Assembly (NCBI GenBank): GCA_000999715.1
Contig: LCGL01000001.1
Span: forward strand, 387,139 to 451,138
Reading direction: 5' to 3'
Source: Candidatus Falkowbacteria bacterium GW2011_GWF2_43_32
GTDB taxonomy: Bacteria; Patescibacteriota; Patescibacteriia; Patescibacteriales; UBA12465
DNA: 64,000 nt
In this document: positions 2,622-61,790 of the stretch, in pieces
Layout: every line of letters starts with the position of its first letter
How positions within the stretch are numbered: the first letter of the stretch is position 1
Translations under genes and position numbers: made by a program
The notes under the pieces: model-generated
What the model saw: only the letters and a program-made list of their open reading frames with translations
Database searches by the model: none
What the model was told of the DNA's origin: nothing

Positions 2622-3023
2622 TTAAATCGTCGAACCCATGGTGCTTCCTCCGCCGAAAGGAATATATTTGAAGACGAAATAAGTGATGGCATAAGCGGCC
2701 ATGACGATAATTAAACCGACGACCGCATTTGTGATGATGGTTTGCGCTTTTTTGATTTGTTCTTCATTGCCCCCGGCCATCATCCATCTGAATCCGGAAA
2801 CGATAATCAAAATGATGAAAATGATTCCCAGGAGTCCCAAAGCCACTTTAATTATTCCGGCAACCAAAACCCCGATATCCATATCGCCCAGATTGGCCGT
2901 AGTGGCGGTCAGATTGGTCATTTCTTCCAAAGCGTCGGTATCCGTCAACAGTTGGGCGGAAGCGCTTTGCACGAATAAAACCGATAAAGCCGTTAAGATG
3001 AATAAGCTGAGAATTTTTTTCAT
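2622..3023 (-). CDS. VirB2/TrbC-like 'T4SS pilin' family small membrane protein (paralog 1 of 7)
   Basis: Signal peptide ending SASAQ, two hydrophobic helices, and the shared loop motif FRWMMAGGNEEQIKKAQ. Same architecture as the next five genes. Confidence 0.7.
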   Translation of the reverse strand: MKKILSLFILTALSVLFVQSASAQLLTDTDALEEMTNLTATTANLGDMDIGVLVAGIIKVALGLLGIIFIILIIVSGFRWMMAGGNEEQIKKAQTIITNAVVGLIIVMAAYAITYFVFKYIPFGGGSTMGSTI

Positions 3024-3024
3024 A

Positions 3025-3435
3025 TTATTGTCCCATTAATATTAATCGGCGTAAAACAAAGGTCCAAAGACTCCAGGCGGAAATGGAGACAATCAAACCG
3101 ATCAAGGCGCTCTTTATCGTGCTTTGGGCTTTTTTGATTTTTTCTTCATTGCCGCTGGCCGTCATCCAGCCGTAACCGGCGATGACCATCAGAACGATGA
3201 AAGTAATGCCGGCAAAACCGATAAAGGCGCCGACAATCGTGCCGGCGATAATCGGAGTGGAAGCGATAGAAGAATCGGTTTGATAGCCGCCGCCTTGACC
3301 GACATTTTGCAAGGTCTGCAGAATGCGGGGAGAGCCGGCGCTGTCCGAGTTTTCTTGCGCACGCACCAGAAAGGGGGAAATTAACAGTCCGAACAGCAGG
3401 AGAGAAAGAAAAATGACGGTGTTTATTTTTTTCAT
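3025..3435 (-). CDS. VirB2/TrbC-like pilin family protein (paralog 2)
   Basis: Signal peptide (..LVRAQ), motif YGWMTASGNEEKIKKAQ between two TM helices. 1-nt spacing to paralog 1. Confidence 0.7.
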   Translation of the reverse strand: MKKINTVIFLSLLLFGLLISPFLVRAQENSDSAGSPRILQTLQNVGQGGGYQTDSSIASTPIIAGTIVGAFIGFAGITFIVLMVIAGYGWMTASGNEEKIKKAQSTIKSALIGLIVSISAWSLWTFVLRRLILMGQ

Positions 3436-3442
3436 ATAAAAT

Positions 3443-3847
3443 TTATTTAGCGACTATAATGCGAGCCAATAAACCGCCTAAGCCGGAGGCTAGAGCATAG
3501 GCAACCAGTACCAAGCTTAAACCGATTAACAGATTTTGGATAGTGGCCTTGGATTTTTTGATTTTTTCTTCATTGCCGGCGGCCTGCATCCAATTATTGC
3601 CGGCGACAAACATCAGTACGATGAAAATTGTCCCCAAGATGGAGAGAAAAACGCGAATGCCGGTGCTGATGATATTTTCCAAGCTGTTTTCTTGGTATTC
3701 GGCGTCGCCCGCGGTGGCGGCCTCATTTACTCTTTGATAAAATTCCGTGTTCTTATAATCTTGAAAAATAGCCGCCTGCGCGACGGAAATATTTAAAATC
3801 AGAAAAGCGGATAAGGCCAAAACAGTTGAGATAAGGATTTTTTTCAT
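3443..3847 (-). CDS. VirB2/TrbC-like pilin family protein (paralog 3)
   Basis: Motif NNWMQAAGNEEKIKKSK. I moved the start to the internal ATG (MKKILIS...) at 3847, which removes the overlap with paralog 4. Confidence 0.65.
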   Translation of the reverse strand: MKKILISTVLALSAFLILNISVAQAAIFQDYKNTEFYQRVNEAATAGDAEYQENSLENIISTGIRVFLSILGTIFIVLMFVAGNNWMQAAGNEEKIKKSKATIQNLLIGLSLVLVAYALASGLGGLLARIIVAK

Positions 3848-3855
3848 ATTCCCGA

Positions 3856-4254
3856 TTATTTCCAAAAAGCGTTAATTAAGAAATAGCTGAGAGCGTAAGC
3901 GGCCAAAACGACAATCAATCCCAGCAGGGCGTCCATAATAACGGCCGTGGATTTTTTGACTTTTTCTTCATTGCCCTGGGCAATCATCCAGGTGAAGCCG
4001 CCGTAAAGAACTAGAACGAAAAAGATTACTCCCAAAAGTCCCAGGAAAAGATAAATTACGATGCCGATGATATCTTCTACGGTAGAAGCTTCGGCGACGT
4101 CATAACCGGCTCGGTTAGCGGCGGCGTTCAGGCCGCTGTCTTCGGAAAAAGAATAAGTTCCGGATTCTTGCGCCAACAGAGGGCCGGAAAATGATAAGCA
4201 GATAAGCAAAACTGCCATGGCCAGTATCAGTTTTTTAAATGATTTTCTTTTCAT
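3856..4254 (-). CDS. VirB2/TrbC-like pilin family protein (paralog 4)
   Basis: Signal peptide (..PLLAQ), motif FTWMIAQGNEEKVKKST, two TM helices. Confidence 0.7.
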   Translation of the reverse strand: MKRKSFKKLILAMAVLLICLSFSGPLLAQESGTYSFSEDSGLNAAANRAGYDVAEASTVEDIIGIVIYLFLGLLGVIFFVLVLYGGFTWMIAQGNEEKVKKSTAVIMDALLGLIVVLAAYALSYFLINAFWK

Positions 4255-4256
4255 TG

Positions 4257-4655
4257 TTATTCTAAAATTTGTCGACCGATGAAATAAGTCAGCGCATAAG
4301 CGGCGAAAACAATCACTATGCCGATGACGGCATTGGTGATCATGGTTTTGGCTTTGGAAATTTCTTGTTCATTGCCGCGCGCCGTCATCCAAGTGACGCC
4401 GGCGTAAATCATTAAGACAAAGAAAAGCACGCCGACAAAGGCCAGTACGACGCCGACGACTTGTCCGACTTTGGTGGTCAGGAATCCGGGCCCGAAAGTT
4501 TCGTTGGTTTGACTGCGGAAAGCGTCCACGCGGGAAGCGGTGCTGTTTAGACCCTCCAACGTAGTGTCCAGAGCCGTTTGCGCCTGAATGACATTGAAAA
4601 CGGAGAAAAAGGCGAAGACGGCGGAGAATAGAGAGATAAAAATAGTTTTTTTCAT
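4257..4655 (-). CDS. VirB2/TrbC-like pilin family protein (paralog 5)
   Basis: Signal peptide (..VIQAQ), motif VTWMTARGNEQEISKAK, two TM helices. Confidence 0.7.
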   Translation of the reverse strand: MKKTIFISLFSAVFAFFSVFNVIQAQTALDTTLEGLNSTASRVDAFRSQTNETFGPGFLTTKVGQVVGVVLAFVGVLFFVLMIYAGVTWMTARGNEQEISKAKTMITNAVIGIVIVFAAYALTYFIGRQILE

Positions 4656-17471: not shown

Positions 17472-17546
17472 TGGTGTCTCCAGGGGGAATCGAACCCTCA
17501 TCTTGAGATCCGGAATCTCACGTTCTATCCGTTGAACTATGGAGAC
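17472..17546 (-). tRNA. tRNA-Arg(CCG), CCA encoded
   Basis: Reverse complement GTCTCCA-TA-GTTC-AACGGATA-GAAC-G-TGAGA-TTCCGGA-TCTCA-AGAT-GAGGG-TTCGATT-CCCCC-TGGAGAC-A-CCA. Perfect acceptor, D and anticodon stems; one mismatch in the T stem. Confidence 0.8.
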
Positions 17547-19688: not shown

Positions 19689-19760
19689 AGTCTCCAGGGG
19701 GAGTTGAACTCTCATCTTGAGATCCGGAATCTCACATTCCATCCGCTGAGCTATGGAGAC
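19689..19760 (-). pseudogene. Degenerate second copy of tRNA-Arg(CCG)
   Basis: About 89% identical over about 70 nt to the tRNA at 17472..17546, with identical acceptor and anticodon arms. It has mismatches in the D stem (GCTC/GAAT) and T stem (GAGAG/CCCCC) and no encoded CCA. Confidence 0.5.
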
Positions 19761-23009: not shown

Positions 23010-23205
23010 AGAGTTGTTTCTTTTATTATAACAAAAAATAAGGCATTTGACCTTATTTTTATCGGCGGTGTACTCGGGGTAAGTCCCCCTATATAGCAAC
23101 ATTATAAGACTTTTCCGAGAACTTTTCATTGGACCATCTTTTTTTTCTGATATTCCTATGTATAAATTTTGATTATCAGTAAAATCCATAATTTTATTGT
23201 ATAAG

Positions 23206-24270: not shown

Positions 24271-24526
24271 AAAATTGTTTATAATTAATGATATATACTA
24301 TATAGCAGATTATAGCAGTAAATAGCAGATTAATCAAGTAGGCTTTATTTAGTAGATATAATTACTTACTTTGGAATAAATGATATTTATATAAAAATTA
24401 GCTAAAATATATAATTATTTACTATTATTTTGCTTACTCCCTCCCTAGCTTTGGAACTTTTGGGCATCAAAAAATAAGGCATTTGACCTTATTTTTATCG
24501 GCGGAGAGGGGGCGCACTGGGAATGG

Positions 24527-24931
24527 TTATCGCTTAATTTCCATGCCCGTGCCTGACAATTTAAAACCGAATTTTTTATAGAAAGGAATCAAAAATTCTT
24601 TATTTTCCGGAGACGCAAATACACCAATAGAGGTATAACCTTTATCGTTAACCTGACTAATTAAACTATTCATGATCATTTTTCCGATTCCTTTGCCTTG
24701 ATAATCTTTGTGAACGACAATATCGTACAGCATGCACATTATTCCGTCTTCTAGAATTCTTCCCATGCCAACCATTAAATTTCCATCCCAGACGCTATAA
24801 ACAAAAGAAGATTTTTCCAGAATCTCTTTCCATTTTTCTGGACCACGATGTCTGTGCCAACCAACCGAATCGCGAAGAGATTCTATTTGTTTAACATCTA
24901 GATTTTTTTTTGTGGATTCAATCAAGTTCAT
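24527..24931 (-). CDS. GNAT family N-acetyltransferase
   Basis: Acetyl-CoA motif A VHKDYQGKGIGKMIM. 134 aa. An extended -10-like TGATATAAT lies only about 8 nt upstream of the ATG. Confidence 0.8.
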   Translation of the reverse strand: MNLIESTKKNLDVKQIESLRDSVGWHRHRGPEKWKEILEKSSFVYSVWDGNLMVGMGRILEDGIMCMLYDIVVHKDYQGKGIGKMIMNSLISQVNDKGYTSIGVFASPENKEFLIPFYKKFGFKLSGTGMEIKR

Positions 24932-25051
24932 ATATATTAATTATATCACGACGTTCCAAAGTGATAAACTCCCTAGCAAAAAATAGCCCCAATATTAGGG
25001 CTATTTACAATCTGCGGAGAGGGTGGGACGTAGTTGGAACGGTTATAACTT

Positions 25052-25486
25052 TTAATTAGTTTCTATCTTCTTTAAATCTCTAGTGAGTTTTCTTAATTTA
25101 TTCGGAATTTTTAATTTTAAGAACTCATCTATACTAACCCATTTGTATAAGTCATGCTCCCAACTTATCAACAATTTCCCCCTAGAAATAAAACCTCTAA
25201 ATGCCAAAGTTACCCAATAATCACCTGATAAGGTAGTGTGAGCATCAACACCAAAAAGACTTATATTATTAACAACCAAACCAGTCTCTTCTTTAACTTC
25301 TCGAATTATAGACTTTAGAGGTTCTTCACCAAATTTAACATCACCCCCAGGAAGATCCCAGTATAAAGGGTTCGAAGGAGCGGTTTTCGTACGTCGCATA
25401 GTTAAAAATTTCCCATTCAGACCAAATACAAAAGCTTTTTGAGAAAATCCTATTACTCCCATTTTTGGCTGTTTTTTCTTAACCAT
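25052..25486 (-). CDS. NUDIX hydrolase
   Basis: Perfect Nudix box GGDVKFGEEPLKSIIREVKEETGL. Start placed at the ATG at 25486; the track's start is a TTG inside the junction repeat. Confidence 0.75.
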   Translation of the reverse strand: MVKKKQPKMGVIGFSQKAFVFGLNGKFLTMRRTKTAPSNPLYWDLPGGDVKFGEEPLKSIIREVKEETGLVVNNISLFGVDAHTTLSGDYWVTLAFRGFISRGKLLISWEHDLYKWVSIDEFLKLKIPNKLRKLTRDLKKIETN

Positions 25487-25731
25487 AAAATTAATAACAA
25501 AATCTTTTAAACATTCTTTTAACGGTTTTATTATATCATAGCGTTCCAAAGCAATAAACTCCCTATCAAAAAATAGCTCTAATATTAGAACTGTTTCTTA
25601 CTGCGGAGAGGGAGGGATTATATTGGAATGCGTGTTAACAATAAAGTTATTGATGTTATGGTCTGGAACAAATAAAAAAGGAAGACTATTGTTAGACTTC
25701 CTCTAAATTTTCCTTTAATCTTTTACTAAGC

Positions 25732-26136
25732 TCATCCTTTAAAATCCGGGTTATAAATTCCTTTTTTATATGCTTTATAGATATAGTTTCGGATAGCTTC
25801 AAGTTTCTTGAAGTAGGAATTGTCTACTTCAAAGATCTTTCCGTCTTTTACAAACTCTGTGGACGTCAAATTGAATGATACATCGTCAACTATAAAAGTT
25901 TTTTCGTTCCAAGAAATCTTGACATTTTCATTCTTTGATCCTGAATTATAGTCGTAATAACTAATAGCTATTGAAATGTTGCTGTCCGGATTCTTTTCTG
26001 AAACAGTTTTGTAAATTTCCTCTGACCAGTTTTTGCAGGTTCCAGGAATATTCAACATCATAAGTTGTGCTTTTAATGAAGTGTTAATCAACAATCCCAA
26101 AGCAACGATACTTAAAAGAATAAATACTTTTTTCAT
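25732..26136 (-). CDS. Hypothetical secreted protein
   Basis: Signal peptide MKKVFILLSIVALGLLINTSLKAQ. No recognisable domain. Confidence 0.55.
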   Translation of the reverse strand: MKKVFILLSIVALGLLINTSLKAQLMMLNIPGTCKNWSEEIYKTVSEKNPDSNISIAISYYDYNSGSKNENVKISWNEKTFIVDDVSFNLTSTEFVKDGKIFEVDNSYFKKLEAIRNYIYKAYKKGIYNPDFKG

Positions 26137-26407
26137 GATTCTACCTTTTTAAGATTAATAATAATTTGATTAATTACTAAATCCGCCTGTTTTCAGACAA
26201 TCTTAGTAATTAATCAAATTTAACCTTATTTTTTAAAGTTCTAAACTAACAAAAAAATATACCATACTGGTATACTTTTGTCAATCAGCGGGGTGTTAGG
26301 GACGCTATCTGAACTTTTTTGATGGATTATTCATAACATTAGGTAAATATGTAGTTTAGTTTTTGTTAAAAAAGGAGTCATTGATTGACTCCTTGTGTTT
26401 TTCACAA

Positions 26408-26695
26408 TTAGTATAAGAACAGTTTTAATTCTGTTTCTTCTATACAAATTTTTGCATTAATTCTGACAAGTTTCTTTCTTAAAGTATTTATACCAGGCTC
26501 GTACTTCCTTTCTGATAATACTTTTTCCAGACTTTCTTTTTCTTGCTTTAACTTGCCCAATTTTGCTGATTTTCTTTTTTCAATAATATACATATCACTT
26601 CCGGACAATGTGCTTACTATATTGACCATGATGAAGTGAGCAATTGTGCGGCACATAAATTCACTGACACCTAAAGAAAAAAATAATAAAACCAA
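26408..26695 (-). CDS. Hypothetical small protein (possibly the 3' part of a disrupted gene)
   Basis: 95-aa ORF with a hydrophobic N-terminus and a charged helix. A 43-aa hydrophobic ORF (26723..26854, minus) lies just upstream in another frame, so a frameshifted membrane protein is possible. Confidence 0.3.
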   Translation of the reverse strand: MVLLFFSLGVSEFMCRTIAHFIMVNIVSTLSGSDMYIIEKRKSAKLGKLKQEKESLEKVLSERKYEPGINTLRKKLVRINAKICIEETELKLFLY

Positions 26696-27106
26696 ACCAT
26701 TGAACCAGTTTAATTCCAGTTCTAATTGCAGTCAGGCATAGAAAAAACCTATCAGCAATATTGAAGTAAAAAAATAGATAAACATTGAATCTGATAATTT
26801 TCTGTAAAAATAATTAAACAAAAAATTTTCTTTCTTTTTTGTTACAGCATTCATGATGATTTCCTCCTTTTAATTATTAAAGTTCATATTTATATAACAA
26901 AAAATTATAATAAATTAATAACATTTTGTCAATCATCGGTTCCCACATTCTGAACTTAAGCTTAATTTAGCGCAAAAAAACAAGCATTCGAACTAAATAA
27001 TTTTATCTAATATTAGATTTAATAATGTTGTTTTTATAATAACCGTCCCTGACACCTTCAGTCAATTATAACTATTTTGTAACTCGATATTTTTGCTTAT
27101 ATAAAA

Positions 27107-27340
27107 CAAAAAATAAGGCTATAAACCTTATTTTTGGCGAACTGCGGAGAGGGAGGGATTTCCGCCCTCGCTCCGCTTCCGCGTCGCTCACTTGTCCCGG
27201 GTCAGCTCAATCGCATCCTCGCCGCTCGGAAAAGCGGCTCGGATTTGTTTTGCTTCTTCCGCCAGCCGGCGGACTGTTCGGATCCCTTTCGTCTTTTACG
27301 CATACAAAAATACAACCCAGAAGGGTTATATTTTTGTATG
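27107..27340 (-). repeat. GC-rich mini-element, copy A (direct repeat of 29603..29826)
   Basis: Near-identical to copy B apart from a 3-nt and a roughly 13-nt indel. Contents: terminator AAAAAATAAGGCTATAAACCTTATTTTT, the tRNA-Ser 3' core, about 150 nt of GC-rich sequence, and a 40-nt hairpin at 27301-27340. Confidence 0.85.
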
Positions 27341-27390
27341 CGGGGTGTCGTGGACGTTGTTAGAACTGGGATGTTTAAAAATACCAACAA

Positions 27391-28011
27391 TTAGCAATTT
27401 TCTGTAAACTTTTTAAACTCCTCAATATCTTCCTCGGAACCTAGTATACGAACTTGTTCTGGCTCAAAGACAACATATTCATCGGGATAAACAGACCTAT
27501 CATCTATACTCTCATCAGCAACGCCAATTATGCTGTCATAGCCATCTTTTTTTAATTGATCAAGATCGGCCTGCTGAATATTGGCCACATTTCTATAACT
27601 ATTATCGCCCACACCTATCTTTACACTTTTGGGGGATGTCATTTTTAACAACACGCTATACATTTGCTCTCCAAACCCACTGGCATATTCAATATCGCTA
27701 GTAAAATAGTGGCCTAAACCATACCTCATTTTCAATTCATCCCTACCTAATTTTTTATTGTATTTTGTATTATCGAATTTTTCTATTCCTTCATTTCCTT
27801 CATGATAAAGAATATTTTTTATTTTACTTTGAGGAAACACAACATCCAGATACTGAGAGTATTGCTCTTGGCTGCCAATAGAAGCTAACTCTGGATTTTT
27901 CTCAAAAACAAAATCAACCCCCTTTTTAATAGCAGCGGATTCTACCTTATTCTGATTATGTTCGGCTGTGAGATTAATTTCATCACCGATATTATTATGA
28001 AAAAAATTCAT
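27391..28011 (-). CDS. ADP-ribosyltransferase-like domain protein (phage/conjugative 'polyvalent protein' ART-type)
   Basis: QEQYSQYLDVVFPQSKIKNILYHEG..., GHYFTSD..., DSIIGV..., DEYVVFEPEQVRILGS. This is an H-Y-E-like arrangement that I recall from ART domains of polyvalent proteins. Not searched. Confidence 0.45.
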   Translation of the reverse strand: MNFFHNNIGDEINLTAEHNQNKVESAAIKKGVDFVFEKNPELASIGSQEQYSQYLDVVFPQSKIKNILYHEGNEGIEKFDNTKYNKKLGRDELKMRYGLGHYFTSDIEYASGFGEQMYSVLLKMTSPKSVKIGVGDNSYRNVANIQQADLDQLKKDGYDSIIGVADESIDDRSVYPDEYVVFEPEQVRILGSEEDIEEFKKFTENC

Positions 28012-28329
28012 ATTTTTATTAGAATTTTTATGTTTTTCTGATGTCAGGAAAACATCTGTGGATAATTAATCTTAAAAACAACAAAAAACTGTTAATTCTA
28101 TATTCTTCTATGATGTATATTATTCTTTATTAAATATACAAAAATTTATTTTTTATTACCTATATTAAGACAATTATAGCATAAATAGTGATAAAATCAA
28201 GATTGAAAAATTGAATTTGAAATGGGTTCGAACTAATAAAAATCCTCAAAAACAAAAGACGAAGTGAGCTTTTAGAGCTACTTCGTCCCTTACTGCGGAG
28301 AGGACGGGACGTAGTTGGAACGGTTTTGA

Positions 28330-28944
28330 CTAAACAATGAGTAAATTCTTTAATTCTCTTAAATTATGTATTATAAAATTTGGGCTGTTAAGGGCTAGCC
28401 TGGTTTCAGAAGTAAATCCCCAAGTTACTGCTACGGTGCTAATACCAACTAGTTTGCCTACCTCTATTTCATGATTTGTGTCTCCAATTATTACTGTTTC
28501 TGTTTTATTAAAGTTATATTTATTAATTAAACTTTTTACCGACTCAACCTTATCATGAACATTGGAAATAACTTCTAAAAATACTCCATTTAGACCGAAG
28601 ATAACAAGTTCTGAAGTTATCGTCTCAACCAAATCAGAGCTAATGACAACCATCTTAATGTTATTAGCTTGTAATTCTTTAATTAACACGGCAATATTTT
28701 GATAAGCCTTGGGGACACGTTCCATAATCGCTTTCTTATAAACCACTGTTTGCTGTTTGCTGGAGAGGGCTGGTAAGTATTTGTTATAAAACATCATATG
28801 GGGCTGAATCCATTCTTCTTTTAGTTCTTTTAAGCTCATTTGTCTAACACCAAAGAACTGAAATACTTTATTAACAGCAAAAAGATGGTCCTCCACAGAA
28901 TCTTTAATTACACCAGACCAATCAAATATAATATTTTTTATCAT
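28330..28944 (-). CDS. HAD-superfamily hydrolase
   Basis: Motif I IIFDWSGVI at the N-terminus, motif IV IGDTNHEIEVG. 204 aa. Confidence 0.7.
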   Translation of the reverse strand: MIKNIIFDWSGVIKDSVEDHLFAVNKVFQFFGVRQMSLKELKEEWIQPHMMFYNKYLPALSSKQQTVVYKKAIMERVPKAYQNIAVLIKELQANNIKMVVISSDLVETITSELVIFGLNGVFLEVISNVHDKVESVKSLINKYNFNKTETVIIGDTNHEIEVGKLVGISTVAVTWGFTSETRLALNSPNFIIHNLRELKNLLIV

Positions 28945-29135
28945 ATTTACTTATTATTTTTTGTTAATATAAGAATATCATATCGTTCCAAAACAATAAA
29001 CTTCATATCAAAAAATAGCCCTAACATTAGGACTGTTTCTTACTGCGGAGAGGGGGGGGTAGTTGGAATGATTTTAGATAAATAAAAAAGGAAGTCTGAT
29101 GTTTTAGCCTTCCTTTTAAAACCAGGCACAGCATT

Positions 29136-29420
29136 TTAGAACAACAATTTTTTTTGTTCCCAAAGTCTGTCCAATTTTTTTGACAAAAACCCGTTATAGA
29201 AATAACCAGATATAAGCAGAGCGGCAAATGCAGAGAGTGTAACAGTAATTGTTATTGCTGCGGTTTCGCCATGATCGATTATAGGTGTTGATAAGGCTTT
29301 GCAATATATAATGGCCACAATAGCAGCCGTTACAAAAAATAATATCCTTAGCCATTCTTTTGTTAATTGCACCTTGTTTTCTTTACGGCAGATTTCGTCG
29401 ATTTTGGTTTCTTTTTTCAT
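29136..29420 (-). CDS. Hypothetical small membrane protein
   Basis: 94 aa, two predicted TM helices, ATG start. Confidence 0.45.
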   Translation of the reverse strand: MKKETKIDEICRKENKVQLTKEWLRILFFVTAAIVAIIYCKALSTPIIDHGETAAITITVTLSAFAALLISGYFYNGFLSKKLDRLWEQKKLLF

Positions 29421-29602
29421 GATTTTATTTTTTTAATGTTCAATTTAATAACAATATTATAGCATATTTTATTAAATATGTCAATTGATGGATAAAATGA
29501 CCCACTTAAACTAACACTATTTATATTAATATTAGCTAAAATATAACATTATATAACAATATTTTTGCTTATTCCTTATTTAGTTTTGGAACTTTTTGAC
29601 AC

Positions 29603-29826
29603 CAAAAAATAAGGCTATAAACCTTATTTTTGGCGAACTGCGGAGAGGGAGGGATTTCCGCCCTCGCTCCGCTTCCGCGTCGCTCACTTGTCCCGGGTCA
29701 GACGCTCAACCGCATCCTCGCCGCTCGGAAAAGCGGCTCGGATTTGTTTCGCTTCTGACCTGTTCGCATCCCTTTCGTCTTTTACGCATACAAAAATACA
29801 ACCCAGAAGGGCTGTATTTTTGTATG
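29603..29826 (-). repeat. GC-rich mini-element, copy B, abutting the tRNA-Ser 3' end
   Basis: In tRNA sense the order is: terminator hairpin CATACAAAAATACAGCCC-TTCT-GGGTTGTATTTTTGTATG (29787-29826) immediately after the tRNA; about 150 nt GC-rich sequence; GAGCGACGCGGAAGCGGAGCGAGGGCGGAAAT; a second copy of the tRNA 3' end CCCTCCCTCTCCGCA (29640-29654, with the upstream AAAT to 29658); and a second terminator. Confidence 0.85.
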
Positions 29827-29914
29827 CGGAGAGGGAGGGATTCGAACCCTCGATGCCCTTTCGGGCATACCGGTTTTCGAGACCAGCGCACTAGACCAAC
29901 TATGCGACCTCTCC
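29827..29914 (-). tRNA. tRNA-Ser(CGA)
   Basis: Reverse complement GGAGAGG..CTGGT-CTCGAAA-ACCGG, long variable arm TATGCCCGAAAGGGCATC, T-arm GAGGGTTCGAATCCCTC, acceptor CCTCTCC-G. Confidence 0.9.
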
Positions 29915-38866: not shown

Positions 38867-38895
38867 TTGACAGAAGCCGGGCTTGTCTGTAAAAT
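38867..38895 (+). promoter_or_regulatory. Sigma70-like promoter upstream of tRNA-Glu
   Basis: TTGACA (38867-38872), 17-nt spacer, TAAAAT (38890-38895). The tRNA starts 58 nt downstream. Confidence 0.45.
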
Positions 38896-38952: not shown

Positions 38953-39024
38953 GGTCCCTTCGTCTAGTGGTTAGGACATCAGGTTTTCATCCTGGTAACA
39001 GGGGTTCGATTCCCCTAGGGACTA
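38953..39024 (+). tRNA. tRNA-Glu(TTC)
   Basis: GGTCCCTTCGTCTAGTGGTTAGGAC..TCAGG-TTTTCAT-CCTGG..AGGGGTTCGATTCCCCT-AGGGACT-A. Confidence 0.9.
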
Positions 39025-39254
39025 CTAATTAAAAAGTGCTCAGCGTTAGCTGGGCATTTTTTAATTAGACGGCGTTAGCCGAGGGGAATCGGACGGGCGG
39101 CAGCGAACTAGATATTTGCCAGTAGGCAAATATCGCAGTGAGCGCCGACAAAAGCGAGCTAGCGTAGCTTTTGGCGCCGCCCAGGACAACGAGAGAGCGA
39201 GCTCCGCCAGCTGGCGGAGGTGAGCGAACGAGGCGGAATTCCCCTAGGGACTAC
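39025..39254 (+). repeat. GC-rich mini-element abutting the tRNA-Glu 3' end (same architecture as the tRNA-Ser elements)
   Basis: Terminator hairpin CTAATTAAAAAGTGCTCAGC-GTTA-GCTGGGCATTTTTTAATTAG directly after the tRNA. Then GC-rich sequence with several perfect hairpins (ATATTTGCC-AGTA-GGCAAATAT; CTCCGCC-AGCT-GGCGGAG). Then GAGCGAACGAGGCGGAATT plus a second copy of the tRNA 3' end ATTCCCCTAGGGACTAC (39238-39254), and a second terminator (39259-39297). Confidence 0.8.
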
Positions 39255-39348
39255 ATAATAAAAATACTCCAACAAAGTTGGAGTATTTTGATTTTTTAGG
39301 CTAACCCTGTTATATTTATAATATATTTTATTATGATTTTTGCCAACG

Positions 39349-39759
39349 ATGAAAAATAATTTAACTAAGGTGGCTTTTGTCTATCTTCAGCGGGACAATA
39401 AAATTTTGCTATTAAAAGAAGGCGGGCGGCTAGCCATGGGTTTGTGGTGTTTCCCCGGCGGGCACGTCGATGTTGGAGAAACTTTTGAACAGGCGGCCAT
39501 TAGAGAGGCCCTAGAAGAAAGCGGTTATCGGATCAGCTTGGGAAAAATAATATACAAATCATTAATGCTTAACTCAGAATATAAAGGCTCTAGGGGTGAT
39601 ACTAATGAGGTTGAATTAGCTATTTTTGAAGGAAATATTATTGGCGGTGAATTTAAAATTGATGATCAAGCCTTGGATTTAAAATGGTTAACTAAAGAAG
39701 AAATTCTTAAACTCCCTTTGCGCTGGAATTTAATACAAGATTTAGTTTTGACAAACTAA
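39349..39759 (+). CDS. NUDIX hydrolase
   Basis: Perfect Nudix box GGHVDVGETFEQAAIREALEESGY. Start at the ATG at 39349 (MKNNLTK). Confidence 0.75.
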   Translation: MKNNLTKVAFVYLQRDNKILLLKEGGRLAMGLWCFPGGHVDVGETFEQAAIREALEESGYRISLGKIIYKSLMLNSEYKGSRGDTNEVELAIFEGNIIGGEFKIDDQALDLKWLTKEEILKLPLRWNLIQDLVLTN

Positions 39760-39922
39760 TTTTAAATTACTAAAATTTCCGCCCATCTCTCAATTTCCCC
39801 AATAATCCCGTCAAAATTTTGGCAAATTTTAGACTTTAGGACTACATAAAAAAAATAACGTGCAATTTGCACGTTATTTTTTTTATGACGCCGTAGGCGG
39901 AAGAATCGAACAAATTAAAATA

Positions 39923-40573
39923 TTATTTCTCTAAAATCAATTCTCCGGTAGCTAACGCTTCTTCATGGGAAGCGCAGCGCGGCCATGGTCGCTCTAAAAC
40001 ATCCTCTGAATCAAAAATAAATATAAAGCAATCTCCGGGAGGGACTTTGCCATAGTTGTTTGTTAAAATATGGTCTTTCTCTTTCCAGATAATTCGTGAA
40101 TAAATAGACCACGGGTCTGTTCCGGTTTCAACACGATGATGTATTACGTGAAGCATGGCTTTCTTCCCATTACACAAATCGCCAGAATGAAACTCGCGTA
40201 CGCCAAGTTCAGTTGGTAAATAAAGATTGGATTCATGATCTACCGTATATTCAATAATGCTGCCAACTGCTTTAAAAAATGAACTTAATAAAACATTATC
40301 ATCACTTGTAACAAAACCATCAGCAATAACCTTGCCGGATTCACTCCGTGTAAACAGACCATTTCTTTTAGTTTTGAGATCTTCTTTGTCTATTTTTAAA
40401 AATATTTCTTCGCCACACGCAAATATACGGTAATCAACCCTTGATAAAAGCTCTTCCATTTTTTTACTTCGCTCTCTATTTTTTAATACAAAAAATATGC
40501 TTATACAAATAACCAGTGCCGCTAAAAGGCTTAAAATACCAAATTTATAAATATGATTTTTTATTAATTTCAT
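39923..40573 (-). CDS. Membrane-anchored hypothetical protein (candidate immunity/partner of the upstream YkuD-like protein)
   Basis: N-terminal TM anchor (FGILSLLAALVICISIFFVL) plus a roughly 175-aa extracytoplasmic domain. The start codon is 2 nt after the upstream stop, so the two are probably co-transcribed or translationally coupled. Confidence 0.5.
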   Translation of the reverse strand: MKLIKNHIYKFGILSLLAALVICISIFFVLKNRERSKKMEELLSRVDYRIFACGEEIFLKIDKEDLKTKRNGLFTRSESGKVIADGFVTSDDNVLLSSFFKAVGSIIEYTVDHESNLYLPTELGVREFHSGDLCNGKKAMLHVIHHRVETGTDPWSIYSRIIWKEKDHILTNNYGKVPPGDCFIFIFDSEDVLERPWPRCASHEEALATGELILEK

Positions 40574-40575
40574 AT

Positions 40576-41538
40576 TTAATCAATAATTTCAAGCACGCCT
40601 ACGCTTATAAAATCTCCTTTACGCGCTTTGATTAATTTGTCGTATATCTCATTCCATTTTTCAATTTCGATTACTGTGATGCAGCCAAGCGAAGCTCTGC
40701 CTGTATGCAAATATTTTTCACCTGAATGCCCAATCCTAAACCAAGTTTTAAATCTAGATGATATATTAACATAACTGCTTGGGTCTTTGTGCGGATAATC
40801 CGGCAACTCAATGTCATGCCAACCCTTTTTCCATGGCGAACCGGTATAATCCGTGGTCTGATATTTTTTATTATCGATGATCAATGCTTTTTGGGAAATA
40901 GAGTATTGTAAATGGATTAGCGGCTCATGTTCAATTTTTGACAGAAAACGTGACTCCTTATTTTCGTCCAAACTAACCGACCCTTTTTGTCCACGATATA
41001 TTCCTTCTAAAATTGTAAAATATTCGCGCCCGCCTTCAATATAATCTGATTGTATTTTTAGGAAGGCGGGGAGAGAGACCGCATCACCATCTACGATTTT
41101 AACTTTAAGCCAGCCGTTATCTATATCGGGTGTATATTTTATTGTATTTATGACTAATGCTTCAATGGTGACTTCAAAAATAGCAATGGACTTGCCCCAG
41201 GTCTTGCCAAAACGATTTTCCCGAAGCTCAATATTATAGGTGAAATTTTGCGGTTTAATATCACCCGTGTCGACTTTAATTGTCTTTTCTGTCTTCCCAA
41301 TATCATTAAATAATATATCTTTTTCGGTAACGGTAATTTTTACGTTAGCAGAAAATGTTTTTTGGTCAGAAGGAAAAGTACCTATCGATTGATTGAGCTC
41401 GGCGGTTTTTCTAGCCCGCATCCTTTTATCGACACGCAAGACCTGATCCAGTAGCTCTATGTCAATACGGATGTCGTTACCAATTGATTTGCCCGTATAT
41501 TTTATTTTTATCAATTTGAACTGAATTTTTTTAAGCAT
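40576..41538 (-). CDS. L,D-transpeptidase-fold (YkuD/Tlde1-DUF2778-like) domain protein, no signal peptide
   Basis: C-terminal ...WFRIGHSGEKYLHTGRASLGCITV..EKWNEIYDKL. This is a His ... S-x-G-C-(I/V) arrangement like the YkuD catalytic H/C motif and T6SS Tlde1-type toxins. The N-terminal roughly 200 aa are beta-rich and unrecognised. Confidence 0.5.
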   Translation of the reverse strand: MLKKIQFKLIKIKYTGKSIGNDIRIDIELLDQVLRVDKRMRARKTAELNQSIGTFPSDQKTFSANVKITVTEKDILFNDIGKTEKTIKVDTGDIKPQNFTYNIELRENRFGKTWGKSIAIFEVTIEALVINTIKYTPDIDNGWLKVKIVDGDAVSLPAFLKIQSDYIEGGREYFTILEGIYRGQKGSVSLDENKESRFLSKIEHEPLIHLQYSISQKALIIDNKKYQTTDYTGSPWKKGWHDIELPDYPHKDPSSYVNISSRFKTWFRIGHSGEKYLHTGRASLGCITVIEIEKWNEIYDKLIKARKGDFISVGVLEIID

Positions 41539-41554
41539 AAAGATTTTTTATTTT

Positions 41555-42034
41555 TTAAATTTTTAATACATCCTGCCTATTCAATATCGAGTGCAGCTCT
41601 TTAACTTTTATCAATAAGACTCTAGCATCTGTATGGGCTTGACTTAATTCTGCTTCCGAGATTCCGATAAAATCACCATATTCAATTCTATTTCTTTTCT
41701 TTCTCATTTGTTGGAATCTTTGAAATTCATTACTGAGCTCACCGTTAAGCAAGGTAGCGGCGGCATTAATTACGATATAATGATGCCCCTCTCCACTTGT
41801 TTTTGCTCTATATCCGTTAATTAACAATATGGCTTCACAGCACAATCTTATAGAATCATAGATGTTGTTATACACAATATCCTCGTCTCCAGTGCCTAAT
41901 CCGGACAAATTTTTATTTGCATAATTATATAACCTGTCTGCCTTCTCAATTTTTATTTCAACCCCTTTTAAGTTAAGCAAAAAAGGCTCAATAGAATTAT
42001 TATTCAACAGTGTTTGAATCTCTGGTAAAATCAT
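41555..42034 (-). CDS. HEPN-domain protein (toxin-like partner of the upstream nucleotidyltransferase)
   Basis: All-helical 159 aa with MRKKRNRIEYGD (the R-x-x-R-N-x-x-x-(H/Y) HEPN-type motif). Overlaps the upstream MNT gene by 35 nt. Confidence 0.55.
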   Translation of the reverse strand: MILPEIQTLLNNNSIEPFLLNLKGVEIKIEKADRLYNYANKNLSGLGTGDEDIVYNNIYDSIRLCCEAILLINGYRAKTSGEGHHYIVINAAATLLNGELSNEFQRFQQMRKKRNRIEYGDFIGISEAELSQAHTDARVLLIKVKELHSILNRQDVLKI

Positions 42035-42587
42035 ATGGGTCTCCTTTTAATTTAATTATTGGCGATAGAAATATATTAGATATAAAATTATTTTTTTCTT
42101 TTATCTTTTTAACAATTTCTTGACTGCTGTAAATATGATAATTTATTTCTCTGGCAATTTTTCTTTCTATAGAACTTATCATGGTAATAAGGGCATTTTG
42201 GTTTATGTCCCCAATTAACATTAAATCAATATCGCTATTATTATTTTCTGTTCCTTTGGCGATTGATCCGAAAACAAAAGCACATTCAACATTATCAAGT
42301 TTATCGACTAACTTTTTTAATTCATTTTCTAAGCCGAATGTTTTTGAAATAATACTTTTTATTTCCTCGTAAAGCGGGTGAGCTTTATTTAATTTAAAAA
42401 AACGCATATTTCCGCGACGCTCATCTAATAATATCCTATCTTCCACTAAATTATCCAAATATTTTTGATAATGACTCGGTTCTTTCTTTAAGTTTTTGGC
42501 AATTTCTCTAAAATAGTATTCCTTTTCTGGGTTTTTAAAAAATAGCTCGATGATTTCTCCACCGCCCTTTTTCAAGAAATTTAGCAT
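42000..42587 (-). CDS. wHTH + minimal nucleotidyltransferase (MNT) domain protein
   Basis: N-terminal wHTH-like segment (YYFREIAKNLKKEPSHYQKYLDNLVEDRILL). NTase motif FVFGSIAKGTENNNSDIDLMLIG (G-S-x10-D-x-D). Confidence 0.7.
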   Translation of the reverse strand: MLNFLKKGGGEIIELFFKNPEKEYYFREIAKNLKKEPSHYQKYLDNLVEDRILLDERRGNMRFFKLNKAHPLYEEIKSIISKTFGLENELKKLVDKLDNVECAFVFGSIAKGTENNNSDIDLMLIGDINQNALITMISSIERKIAREINYHIYSSQEIVKKIKEKNNFISNIFLSPIIKLKGDPYDFTRDSNTVE

Positions 42588-42943
42588 AGTATGTTTGATA
42601 ATTTTTATTTCAATTATTCTTGATTATATTATACACTATTTATGTACAATTGTACATACTTTGTATATGGTGGCTAACATTAGTAAATAATTACACATTT
42701 ATCAAGAGAAGGGTTAAATTATCCCAAAACTTCCCCCCACTTCTCAATTTCCCCAATAATCCCCTCAGAATTTTGGCAAATTTCAGACTTTAGGACTACA
42801 TAATAAAAATACTCCAACTTTTTGGAGTATTTTTATTATTTTGATAATTTATTTTTCCCTGTTGACAATTTTGCATAAAAGAGATATTCTTTTTTGAAAC
42901 ATAAATATCATAAACTATTGGTCATTAACAAAAATTTATAAAA

Positions 42944-43528
42944 ATGGAAACAAACGATGAGCCGCAAAAAGACGAAGTAACTCAGCGTGATTTAGAAATT
43001 CTCGAAATTTTTATTTCTAATTCATTGGAAGCCACTGTCAGGGCCAAAAAAGCGATTATTTGGTTTTTACGCCAAAGTAATTATTTGCAATCCAATATTG
43101 CCATGTCCATCTCATCACCTTCTAGGAAAAGCGATGAGTATAAATGGGCTCAGGAAGTTGGCATTGCTCTTCATGACATGAGATTGCCAATCAGGATAGA
43201 TGACCTCTTTTCTTTAATGAGGATTTCAAAACGTTTTGTTTCTCATTGTGGAGTGGCAAAGAAAATTAGTGATGATCTAATTGAACTTGAAACTGGTTGG
43301 GACAGTGAACATCAGAGACATGTCCCGGTAGACCTTCTTGGTTATACAATTTGGCTGGCTGACGAGTTTTATCAAAAAGAAGTTTATCTGATTGAATTCA
43401 AGCCCGCAGAAGTTAAAGTTGTAAAGCTACGAAAAGATCATTCGGATGTGATAGAATATCATGGTAAAGAGTTTTATGAAGATTGCGAAATTCCTAAAAA
43501 TCTCCGCGACGTTCAAGCAAGGTGGTAA
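42944..43528 (+). CDS. Hypothetical protein
   Basis: 194-aa ORF with an ATG start. It is the only gene in its cassette. No recognisable domain. Confidence 0.45.
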   Translation: METNDEPQKDEVTQRDLEILEIFISNSLEATVRAKKAIIWFLRQSNYLQSNIAMSISSPSRKSDEYKWAQEVGIALHDMRLPIRIDDLFSLMRISKRFVSHCGVAKKISDDLIELETGWDSEHQRHVPVDLLGYTIWLADEFYQKEVYLIEFKPAEVKVVKLRKDHSDVIEYHGKEFYEDCEIPKNLRDVQARW

Positions 43529-43777
43529 AAGTCTCAGCTCTTAACAAATAAAGTCTATATCCATGAGATAAGGTATAGACTTTTTATTTTAAGTAAGATT
43601 TATCAGCCAATGTCAGAATTTCCACTCACTTCTCGATTTCCCTAACAATTTTCTCAAAATTTTGAGAAACTTCAAAACCTAGGACTACTAACTAAAAAGA
43701 TCCAATATTTACCGGATATTGCTTAATTTGCTTTTCCGGTTTTTATTTATTAAACTTAAAAATATAGAATAAACAAT

Positions 43778-61582: not shown

Positions 61583-61661
61583 ATAAGCAGAAGATTAATT
61601 TTTTATTTTTCTTCAAAAAAAATTTTAAAAACATTAAATTTTTAGAAAGGAGGTGACTATT

Positions 61662-61790
61662 ATGAAAAAGAAAGCCAAAAAAAAGGTGGTAAAAAAAGTG
61701 GCTAAGAAAAAGGTAGCCAAGAAAAAGGTGGCTAAGAAACCGGCTAAGAAAAAGGTAGCCAAGAAAAAGACCGCCAAAAGAAAGAAATAA
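61662..61790 (+). CDS. 42-aa lysine-rich (AKKKV-repeat) histone H1-like basic protein; not in the ORF track
   Basis: Strong SD AAAGGAGGTGA 6 nt upstream of the ATG. Sequence MKKKAKKKVVKKVAKKKVAKKKVAKKPAKKKVAKKKTAKRKK. Own promoter, and a downstream hairpin plus T-run at about 61847-61885. Confidence 0.65.
   Translation: MKKKAKKKVVKKVAKKKVAKKKVAKKPAKKKVAKKKTAKRKK

Follow-up and report, generated by a model that had tools for sequence, protein, structure and literature searches.

What places short, GC-rich stretches of DNA directly behind tRNA genes, and in what form do such stretches act? This question is raised by a 64,000-nt stretch of the genome of Candidatus Falkowbacteria bacterium GW2011_GWF2_43_32 (GenBank assembly GCA_000999715.1, contig LCGL01000001.1, positions 387,139 to 451,138 of the forward strand; hereafter, the window). 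It contains three mini-elements of this kind: copy B at the 3' end of tRNA-Ser(cga), copy A farther out behind the same gene, and a third one, referred to as the Glu element, behind tRNA-Glu(ttc). Results of our sequence analysis indicate that the three stretches belong to a family of ~230-270-bp modules located behind tRNA 3' ends in Falkowbacteria-like Patescibacteria. We lean towards the view that these modules are non-autonomous tRNA-tail insertions carrying a structured RNA that is co-transcribed with the tRNA.

Organization of the three mini-elements

The two tRNA genes, as well as copies A and B, were found where a first inspection of the window (hereafter, the sequence-only reading) had placed them, with copy B adjoining tRNA-Ser. 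As that reading had described, copies A and B are nearly identical: within ungapped blocks (110, 70, and 53 nt) they share 95-96% of nucleotides, and two indels distinguish them, one of 3 nt and one of ~13 nt. The GC content of the cores of the elements is 52-54%, compared with 18-37% in their flanks; the window as a whole has 42% GC, and the region behind tRNA-Ser 18-37%. Five occurrences of the motif pair GAGCGA-N(1-8)-CGGAA, a type noted before as common to the Ser and Glu elements, were counted in the window, each of them within one of the three elements (0.34 occurrences in shuffled sequences).

The five-part make-up proposed earlier was recovered in three of three elements, and the Glu element shares with the Ser copies, as had been claimed, the order of parts and, as described below, homology along the full length. 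Read in the tRNA sense, these parts are a terminal hairpin (T1) followed by a short spacer, a GC-rich core that contains the motifs, a copy of the tRNA tail, and a second hairpin (T2). T1 is a perfect or near-perfect hairpin of ~20 bp, which starts inside the last tRNA nucleotides. The core is 120 nt long in copy B, 130 nt in copy A, and 158 nt in the Glu element. The tail copy is exact and extends from T-loop position 58 to just beyond the discriminator (AATCCCTCCCTCTCCGCA, 18 nt, in the case of Ser; ATTCCCCTAGGGACTAC, 17 nt, in the case of Glu). T1 of copy B is a bidirectional-terminator-like hairpin brought by the element, and the G·U pair that it contains is valid on the tRNA-sense strand only. 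T2 of the same copy is followed by a perfect sigma-70 promoter for a cassette gene of 94 aa.

A family of modules behind tRNA genes

We collected at least 17 distinct members of the family from at least seven assemblies, and all 17 share the part order given above. Besides the three elements of the window, ~15 members come from other assemblies of Patescibacteria. They are located behind tRNA-Ser (cga, gct, gga), tRNA-Gly (gcc, tcc), tRNA-Arg, tRNA-Val, and tRNA-Glu, or at a degenerate tail site within a cassette array. In general, a 16-22-bp hairpin at the tRNA end is followed by an inverted T-loop copy, a core of 120-170 nt, and a copy of tRNA nucleotides 58-73. Degenerate tail sites of the GTTCTAACAACGTCCACGACACCCCGCA type, such as the one directly upstream of copy A, are also present ahead of internal copies in L136 and L082 (loci of other assemblies are given by our L numbers). 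Short repeats or palindromes of the GCCTGCC type were seen inside the displaced tail copy in L130 (313-380) and L136 (2084-2115).

The pattern GTGAGCGA..GGCGGAAWTCCC, run on contigs of species-representative genomes, gave 117 listed loci, five of which are real, and nearly all the other listed matches are chance ones in GC-rich genomes. Among the matches listed there are at least five true relatives: two contigs of the metagenome-assembled genome CAYPAS01, WY1.bin77, WY1.bin50, and one "Patescibacteria group bacterium". A tighter pattern, applied to JGI metagenomes, yielded nine loci, five of them real. A covariance model added a copy behind tRNA-Arg(ccg) in L080 and a copy between tRNA-Val(tac) and tsaE in L143, a locus which had been chosen for its synteny and not for the motif.

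The sequence-only reading had itself raised the doubt whether the Ser and Glu elements are alike beyond their short motifs. They are, as a covariance model built from foreign genomes matches the Glu element from end to end. This model (R2) comprises 12 members, none of which comes from the genome studied here or lies at tRNA-Glu or tRNA-Arg. Along its full length it scores 99 bits with copy B, 78 bits with copy A, 44.7 bits with the Arg element of L080, and 40.8 bits with the Glu element (E ~1e-9; the shortened calibration of the model makes the E-values approximate). Its one further match in the 64-kb window is weak and lies on the T-arm of tRNA-Ser, and no match was obtained in 43 loci (304 kb) that hold the short motif by chance.

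A search of the whole window with Rfam 15 at gathering thresholds gave tRNAs only, and a permissive cmscan (E ≤ 10) of both element regions gave real tRNAs and nothing credible for the core. The blastn comparison of one element with phage and plasmid collections gave no match; three pattern scans of viral contigs gave chance matches in coding sequences or none. No account of such an element turned up in literature searches, and the family is apparently undescribed.

Fold of the core and its covariation

RNAalifold and the folds of single sequences agree on five helices in the core. P1, the closing helix, joins an inverted T-loop and T-stem copy (AGGGAWTCGAAC) to the first 6-10 nt of the displaced tRNA tail. 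P2 is a long-range helix, P3 a long arm, P4 a hairpin whose tip is usually CC-GGG-GG, and P5 a further hairpin. Symmetric GA/GA internal loops part the helices, several helix tips are GGAA tetraloops, and the joining sequences GGACAA and GGCGGAA are invariant. P2 occurs in the variants GGUCAG/CUGACC, GGUUGG/CCAACC, GGUUGC/GCAACC, GGAUUG/CAAUCC, GGUUAG/CUAACC, and GGGCGGC/GCCGCCC.

Covariation was counted for the structure of the L143 member on a MAFFT alignment of 17 members. Standard pairs were observed in 77.1% of cells, as compared with 34-42% in shifted controls, and 34 of the 55 pairs are changed on both sides (9-13 in the shifted controls). The covariation score is 0.305 and does not exceed 0.093 in the shifted controls, and in 500 shuffles the observed values were never attained. 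An earlier count on the structure of the L133 member is concordant; the two counts together give 77-80% vs. 34-46% of standard-pair cells and 27-34 vs. 5-13 pairs changed on both sides.

In the sequence-only reading, the GAGCGA..CGGAA repeats were likened to arm-type recombinase binding sites. In the predicted fold they are instead opposite strands of a helix: the two GAGCGA strands lie opposite one another, with the successive pairs G·A, A·G, G-C, C-G, G·A, and A·G, around a hairpin with compensatory changes in its stem. Since these strands pair and compensatory changes accompany them, the repeated motif appears to be a matter of structure rather than a series of sites for a protein. In 15 of 15 members tested, the tRNA-sense strand gives the better fold of the two, and the strand was assigned from the sense and antisense folding energies together with the G·A loops; the count of G·U vs. 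A·C by strand (30 vs. 34) is uninformative because P4 is misaligned.

The idea of a structured, tRNA-like non-coding RNA, also put forward earlier, stands as regards the structure, which covariation supports, but not as regards the likeness to tRNA: no Rfam match to the core appeared even at E ≤ 10, and half a T-arm is all that is mimicked. The element has no 5' acceptor strand, and the core stands in place of the T-loop. The other possibility that had been considered, namely, that the core is a fragment of a known gene, found no backing, as the open reading frames (ORFs) overlapping it have no Pfam match. The lengths of the indels that separate members are not divisible by three.

P1 is adapted to each tRNA. 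In the case of tRNAs with a TTCGAAT T-loop, the left motif GGGAUU pairs with AAUCCC, and in the case of those with TTCGATT, GGGAAU pairs with AUUCCC. The left motif of the Arg member is AGGAAU, and a C-to-U change in the displaced copy is tolerated there as a G·U pair; in the Val member, ACAAGGAUU pairs with AAUCCUUGU. The displaced tail matches the tRNA exactly in eight members. It differs by 3 nt in L133, by 2 nt in L080b, and by 1 nt in L082b, and is lost after 9 nt in L143, the scaffold being kept in each of them. The 9 nt left in L143 are exactly those that pair in P1; the remaining tail and T2 are gone, and the domain is intact (134 bits). As the tail decays while the fold stays, P1 and the fold seem to be under selection after insertion, and the remaining tail does not.

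In the core of copy A, an additional hairpin (TCCGCCGGCTGGCGGA) breaks up the 5' strand of P2 and P4 is missing; judged by its sequence, copy A looks like an older, partly decayed copy. The core of copy B is also without hairpin P4, which is present in L006. This locus and L007 represent sister assemblies of the same population (ENA ANAN16-1 scaffold_31, GCA_003489845.1), which are 99.7% identical to the window locus over 20 kb, the sole gaps being two ~27-nt stretches, one in A and one in B. The missing stretch is a perfect 12-bp hairpin, CGCTAAGCATCC-GGG-GGATGCTTAGCG, present in A and B of both sister assemblies, and the end points of its deletion differ between A and B. Since the sister copies have this hairpin and the window copies do not, the latter are shortened versions. 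The absence of the hairpin may reflect either the loss of a palindrome in vivo or an assembly artefact.

Insertion and mobility

Repeats of 16-18 nt that cover tRNA nucleotides 58-73 are present in copy B, the Glu element, L050, L080, L088, and L132, and the flanking tRNAs are intact according to ARAGORN and Rfam. Synteny is kept around tRNA-Ser(cga), in the order Wzy - RluA - 105 aa - tRNA-Ser - variable island - tRNA-Arg - Cyt-b5. In the relatives compared, the flanking RluA-family pseudouridine synthase is 67-70% identical, and the orthologous tRNA-Ser(cga) is empty in L140, L141, and L142. The junction of tRNA-Val and tsaE is occupied in L143; in the window, tsaE begins 4 nt past tRNA-Val.

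The identity of cores is 81-85% between elements at different tRNAs of different genomes and 42-44% between two types sharing one genome (42% for Ser vs. Glu elements here), and it does not track the divergence of host proteins. Given the empty orthologous tRNAs and the uncoupling of core type from tRNA identity, the elements are likely to be mobile and to change targets. Tandem or truncated copies are represented by the second copy in L132 and by the Glu-type remnant in the window (Table 1).

The search for recombinases with Pfam among ~60 ORFs of the window (including most of those with 90 aa or more) and ~20 ORFs of related loci revealed none but an rve gene in L082, probably an unrelated insertion sequence (IS), and no ORF is present inside any of ~18 copies. 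Two unannotated neighbours, of 384 aa in L136 and of 275 aa in the window, were considered as recombinases and are not recombinase-like. As the elements contain no recombinase, they must be moved in trans. This result, together with the empty orthologous sites in relatives, bears out the earlier proposal of small insertions at tRNA 3' ends that are mobilised in trans. The proposal that copy A was pushed outward by later insertions fits as well, and the older Glu copy is likewise located behind the first cassette.

Several other rearrangements at tRNA genes were observed. Two tRNA-Arg(ccg) genes of the window (17472-17546 and 19689-19760), 87% identical, lie on either side of an HD-domain gene and a Fic gene, as if a further tRNA-anchored insertion had brought or duplicated a whole tRNA. 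In L008 (10332-10430), which represents another strain with 13 mismatches over 10.4 kb upstream, the sequence diverges within tRNA-Ser after nucleotide 28, so that the breakpoint between the strains is inside the tRNA gene; past it, a tRNA-Ser(uga)-like 3' part and a different downstream gene are found. In L147 (6704-7505), and also in the P0038 genome, the orthologous tRNA-Ser is interrupted after ~22 nt by an insertion encoding a LAGLIDADG-type protein. ARAGORN found no tRNA at the interrupted site of L147, and the insertion may be an intron in the D-loop region. In L141 (10800-10821), a 22-nt repeat that starts from T-loop position 54 (TTCAAATCCCTCCCTCTCCGCA) bounds a 1.7-kb two-gene unit behind tRNA-Ser. 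Its length exceeds the 16-18 nt seen in the mini-elements, so that the crossover point or the enzyme may be a different one.

Cassette arrays behind the tRNA genes

Single-gene cassettes follow both tRNA genes (window 24400-29600, minus strand, and 39300-43700). Their genes encode the 94-aa membrane protein, HAD, ART-PolyVal, NUDIX, GNAT, and Fic proteins, a HEPN/nucleotidyltransferase pair, and others. At the start of each cassette is a conserved module of a terminator and an extended -10 promoter, and at its end a tRNA-Ser or tRNA-Glu tail copy, ahead of which lies a conserved arm (GTTCCAACTAC in the Ser array; an 86-nt repeat in the Glu array). A tRNA forms the head of each array, every cassette has a terminator and promoter of its own, no intI was found, and there is no integrase near the arrays. 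The arrays recall the tRNA-anchored islands of Prochlorococcus, most of whose material is without an integrase (10.1101/2020.12.28.424599). The occurrence of cassettes without a mini-element (L140) and of mini-elements without arrays (L080, L088, and L143) agrees with one insertion after another at the tRNA, in which copy A and the remnant at tRNA-Glu would be older, displaced, and partly decayed.

The 86-nt repeat is present in three copies, each ending in the tRNA-Glu tail (window 39772-39857, 42726-42811, and 43615-43700). The first of them starts with AAATTTCCGCCC, the inverse of the mini-element motif GGGCGGAAAT, which may be a shared protein site or a coincidence. At 24501-24514 and 23053-23068 of the window, a hybrid site was seen, in which a tail of tRNA-Ser type (CCCTCTCCGC) passes into the sequence that follows tRNA-Asp (CGATAAAAA...); its downstream hairpin recurs at 23032-23068. 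This suggests recombination between Ser-type and Asp-type sites.

Interpretation of the elements

According to the account towards which we lean, an element would enter by site-specific recombination in the segment between the T-loop and the 3' end of the tRNA gene, with the use of an enzyme encoded elsewhere. Its entry would regenerate the tRNA and duplicate 16-18 bp, and T1 would take the place of the tRNA's own terminator. Transcription from the tRNA promoter would read through T1 and produce the domain as RNA, which would be kept by selection in place, either for the maintenance or mobilisation of the element or for a cellular role. No sigma-70-like promoter was detected from T1 to the core, although consensus promoters precede both the tRNA-Glu gene and the first cassette; lacking a promoter of its own, the core, if transcribed, would be reached by read-through from the tRNA. 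The element and the tRNA always have the same orientation. In L143, no promoter was detected from the tRNA pair to tsaE, with the element in between, so that tsaE probably depends on read-through across the element; the sequence of this locus suggests that read-through across T1 occurs there. The multi-helix junction, the invariant joining sequences GGACAA and GGCGGAA, the tetraloops, and the persistence of the fold beyond the decay of the repeat favour RNA.

Several points weigh against this account. T1 resembles an efficient bidirectional terminator, which would limit read-through, and the inserting enzyme was not found in the loci scanned. Neither an excised circle nor an exact empty-site allele within one population was found, and every comparison of occupied and empty sites is between species (those with RluA proteins 67-70% identical). 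The alignments used for covariation were made with MAFFT and include many close relatives, with an effective sequence number of ~3. Most members were found via a pattern that held GGACAAGTGAGCGA and GGCGGAAWT, and the conservation of those motifs is overstated for this reason. Finally, the roles assigned to the domain are putative. RNA and single-stranded DNA structures are inseparable bioinformatically (PMC5737381), and the fold may belong to either.

This last point bears directly on the possibility, unlikely in our estimate, that the fold is used as single-stranded DNA, namely, as a folded attachment site like attC or CTX attP(+), in which P1 mimics the T-arm duplex and a host tyrosine recombinase acts during replication or after single-strand uptake. 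P1 indeed rebuilds the T-arm duplex with unpaired bases alongside, the entire unit including T1 makes one large fold, and there is neither a promoter nor a recombinase in cis; the type IV pilus/secretion proteins of the window (T4SS-pilin-like genes and a T2SSE ATPase) may be compatible with DNA uptake. Known folded att sites, however, are simple hairpins of little conservation, as opposed to the five-helix junction with invariant GGACAA and GGAA tetraloops observed here, and the domain of L143 is intact despite the loss of most of its tail repeat, which suggests a function after insertion. Quite unlikely is a guide or bridge-like RNA serving a guided insertion enzyme encoded elsewhere, in which the anti-T-loop and the tail copy would read both strands of the tRNA gene. 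It would account for a scaffold whose 3' segment has the sequence of the target and whose 5' segment is complementary to the other strand, for the switching of target among at least seven tRNAs with changes in these segments alone, and for the lack of a protein in cis. On the other hand, the tail drifts from the adjacent tRNA in L133, L080b, L082b, and L143 with the scaffold kept, and a guided nuclease would cut the adjacent intact tRNA, in which the target is complete; genes of the IS110, TnpB, IscB, or Cas kinds were absent from all loci examined, none of ~18 copies is an autonomous ORF-bearing version, and no internal loop co-varies with the target. A more far-reaching idea, which we likewise hold to be unlikely, makes the core the nucleic-acid part of a new insertion system, whose 5' anti-T-loop and 3' tail recognise the strands of the T-arm, with a recombinase encoded elsewhere. 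If true, 250-bp modules, and perhaps the neighbouring cassettes, could be placed behind any tRNA and be retargeted by a few nucleotide changes.

That the elements are plain attL/attR remnants resembling cis-mobilizable elements (CIMEs), with the GC-rich part as a duplex attP arm and the repeats as arm-type integrase sites, had been proposed earlier, and the size of the elements is near that of a lambda-type attP. Direct repeats of the tail, regeneration of the tRNA, and accretion in tandem are classical features of tRNA-targeting integrases (10.1101/2020.12.28.424599). We nevertheless consider this very unlikely: duplex protein sites leave unexplained the long-range compensatory changes in P2, P3, P4, and P5, the GAGCGA motifs pair mutually, and no integrase-bearing full-length parent appears among ~18 copies from several genomes. 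The notion of a resident host small-RNA gene, vertically inherited in the tRNA 3' trailer and immobile, agrees with the constant co-orientation with the tRNA and with the presence of an element at tRNA-Ser(gct) beside tRNA-Arg(gcg) in three distant genomes. It is made highly improbable by the empty orthologous sites in relatives, by two near-identical copies within one array, by the duplicated tail, and by a core similarity that follows neither host divergence nor tRNA identity. We give least credence to the suggestion of the sequence-only reading that the elements are a recombination platform, analogous to attI, which the arrays need at the tRNA. The Ser and Glu elements of the window are indeed the tRNA-proximal units of their arrays, but in L140 a same-family cassette follows tRNA-Ser directly, with no mini-element, and L080, L088, and L143 have mini-elements without cassette arrays, so that the platform idea is not supported; moreover, copy A and several others are internal to arrays.

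Some further candidates were considered and rejected. The genes downstream of the elements are mutually unrelated, which does not fit a T-box or riboswitch, and neither a reverse transcriptase nor a domain V, as in a retron or group II intron, is present. A split tRNA or tRNA intron is at odds with the intact tRNA, and a tRNA-primed retroelement with the location of the structure on the sense strand and the lack of a reverse transcriptase. As for an IS608-like end geometry, the hairpins T1 and P5 are not related to each other.

Comparison with known systems

The elements resemble tRNA-targeting islands (tyrosine-integrase islands, the tycheposon islands of Prochlorococcus, and CIMEs) in their insertion into the 3' part of a tRNA that is regenerated, in the direct repeats of partial tRNA, in the outward displacement of older insertions by newer ones, and in that most of the material is without an integrase (10.1101/2020.12.28.424599). 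They differ from such islands in being ~250 bp long and gene-less, with no integrase-bearing parent found, and in having a multi-helix body whose closing helix derives from duplicated target sequence. The logic of insertion is that of tRNA-targeting integrative elements, the defining recombinase was not found, and the body is a structured domain that is partly target-derived.

In attC and CTX attP(+), as in the elements described here, distant segments pair to rebuild a site, and strand specificity, an enzyme acting in trans, and an association with cassette arrays are shared features. Those sites, however, are simple hairpins of weak conservation, whereas the elements have five helices, invariant junctions, and GNRA loops; their target is the tRNA T-arm, and a link to IntI or Xer would be hypothetical. 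P1 is an imperfect duplex with unpaired bases within the five-helix fold. Compared by eye with the R-box consensus (RYYYAAC/GTTRRRY), TTCGAAC and GTTCGAA agree at ~5 of 7 positions. The omega RNA of IS200/IS605 elements and palindrome-associated transposable elements (PATEs), as well as the bridge RNA of IS110, also has a scaffold of 100-200 nt at the end of an element beside a segment matching the target, and non-autonomous copies are possible there too. In contrast, no TnpB, IscB, TnpA, or IS110 was found in the loci examined and there is no Rfam match; the target is regenerated beside the element, the tail decays with the scaffold kept, and internal guide loops are lacking. As far as function is concerned, the likeness to attC/CTX sites and to transposon guide RNAs is speculation by analogy.

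Correia, ERIC, and BOX repeats and RNAs of the 3' external transcribed spacer (3'ETS-leuZ) type are likewise small, gene-less, present in multiple copies, and co-transcribed with neighbours. The long hairpins of the mini-elements could be RNase III substrates, with release of the RNA from the tRNA trailer. Correia, ERIC, and BOX repeats have terminal inverted repeats, short target duplications, and no known tRNA specificity, and 3'ETS RNAs are not known to be mobile and are less structured than the elements. GOLLD and ROOL RNAs share with the latter a complex fold, proximity to tRNAs, and possible co-transcription (PMC5737381). They are 500-800 nt long, are represented in Rfam, and are not known to duplicate a target, and the elements have no Rfam match.

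Patescibacteria have tiny genomes with few recognisable mobile elements. The window nonetheless has highly variable islands behind tRNA genes, and the mini-elements provide a compact and easily searchable marker of the island-building machinery. Their structured motif is new to Rfam, and its covariation is unusually clear. If it is made as RNA, it represents a new class of tRNA-linked RNA; if the fold aids its own insertion, as an attachment site or as a guide, a new way to program insertion at tRNA genes would be at hand. We give a modest chance to a role of the fold in targeting, which, if true, would be categorically new. The covariance models built here make the question of RNA or insertion testable in metagenomes and metatranscriptomes.

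Coordinates and further features of the window

Table 1. Mini-elements, their parts, and associated features (positions in the window unless another locus is named)
Feature	Position	Strand	Basis or remark
tRNA-Ser(cga), target gene of copy B	29826..29914	-	ARAGORN; Rfam tRNA 56.3 bits
tRNA-Glu(ttc), target gene of the third element	38953..39025	+	ARAGORN
tRNA-Glu promoter, TTGACA-17-TAAAAT	38867-38895	+	promoter scan
Copy B	29603-29827	-	abuts tRNA-Ser 3' end
Hairpin T1, copy B	29786..29827	-	20-bp A/U-rich stem, GC tip; begins in final 2 tRNA nt
Structured core, copy B	29654..29773	-	folding, covariance model
Left motif, copy B, AGGGATGCGAAC	29762-29773	-	inverted T-loop
Helix P5, copy B, GTGAGCGA-CGC-GGAA-GCG-GAGCGA	29664-29687	-	
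Right motif, copy B, GAGGGCGGAAAT	29654-29665	-	
Displaced tRNA-Ser nt 58-73 + CA, copy B, AATCCCTCCCTCTCCGCA	29639..29656	-	first 6-7 nt form 3' strand of P1
Hairpin T2, copy B, GTTCGCC-AAAAATAAGG..CCTTATTTTT	29603..29638	-	
Copy A	27107-27341	-	2.5 kb beyond copy B
Degenerate tRNA-tail-like site, GTTCTAACAACGTCCACGACACCCCGCA	27342..27372	-	directly upstream of copy A
Hairpin T1, copy A	27300..27341	-	
Structured core, copy A	27158..27287	-	covariance model, comparison
Left motif, copy A, AGGGATCCGAAC	27276-27287	-	
tRNA-Ser tail copy, copy A	27143..27160	-	distal end of copy A
Hairpin T2, copy A	27107..27142	-	identical to T2 of copy B
Cores compared with sister assembly	27158-27287, 29654-29773		L006 12982-13171, 10469-10645
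Glu element	39025-39289	+	
Hairpin T1, Glu element	39025..39068	+	20 bp
Structured core, Glu element	39083..39240	+	P2 GGGCGGC/GCCGCCC
Left motif, Glu element, GGGGAATCGGAC	39083-39094	+	inverted TTCGATT T-loop
Right motif, Glu element, GAGGCGGAATT	39230-39240	+	
Displaced tRNA-Glu tail, ATTCCCCTAGGGACTAC	39238..39254	+	
Hairpin T2, Glu element	39261..39289	+	called as bidirectional terminator in scan
Remnant of older Glu-type element	39846..39911	+	behind NUDIX cassette; T1-like hairpin + GACGCCGTAGGCGGAAGAATCGAAC, then core lost
IS481-family (rve) transposase gene	L082 4682-5626	opposite to mini-element	~80 bp from mini-element

Two repeat arrays away from the mini-elements were also observed in the window. 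At 2622-4655, there are five tandem paralogues of ~133 aa with 64-71% DNA identity and a Pfam match to T4SS pilin. At 61661-61786, three tandem 42-nt repeats, rich in A and G, apparently code for lysine-rich repeats.

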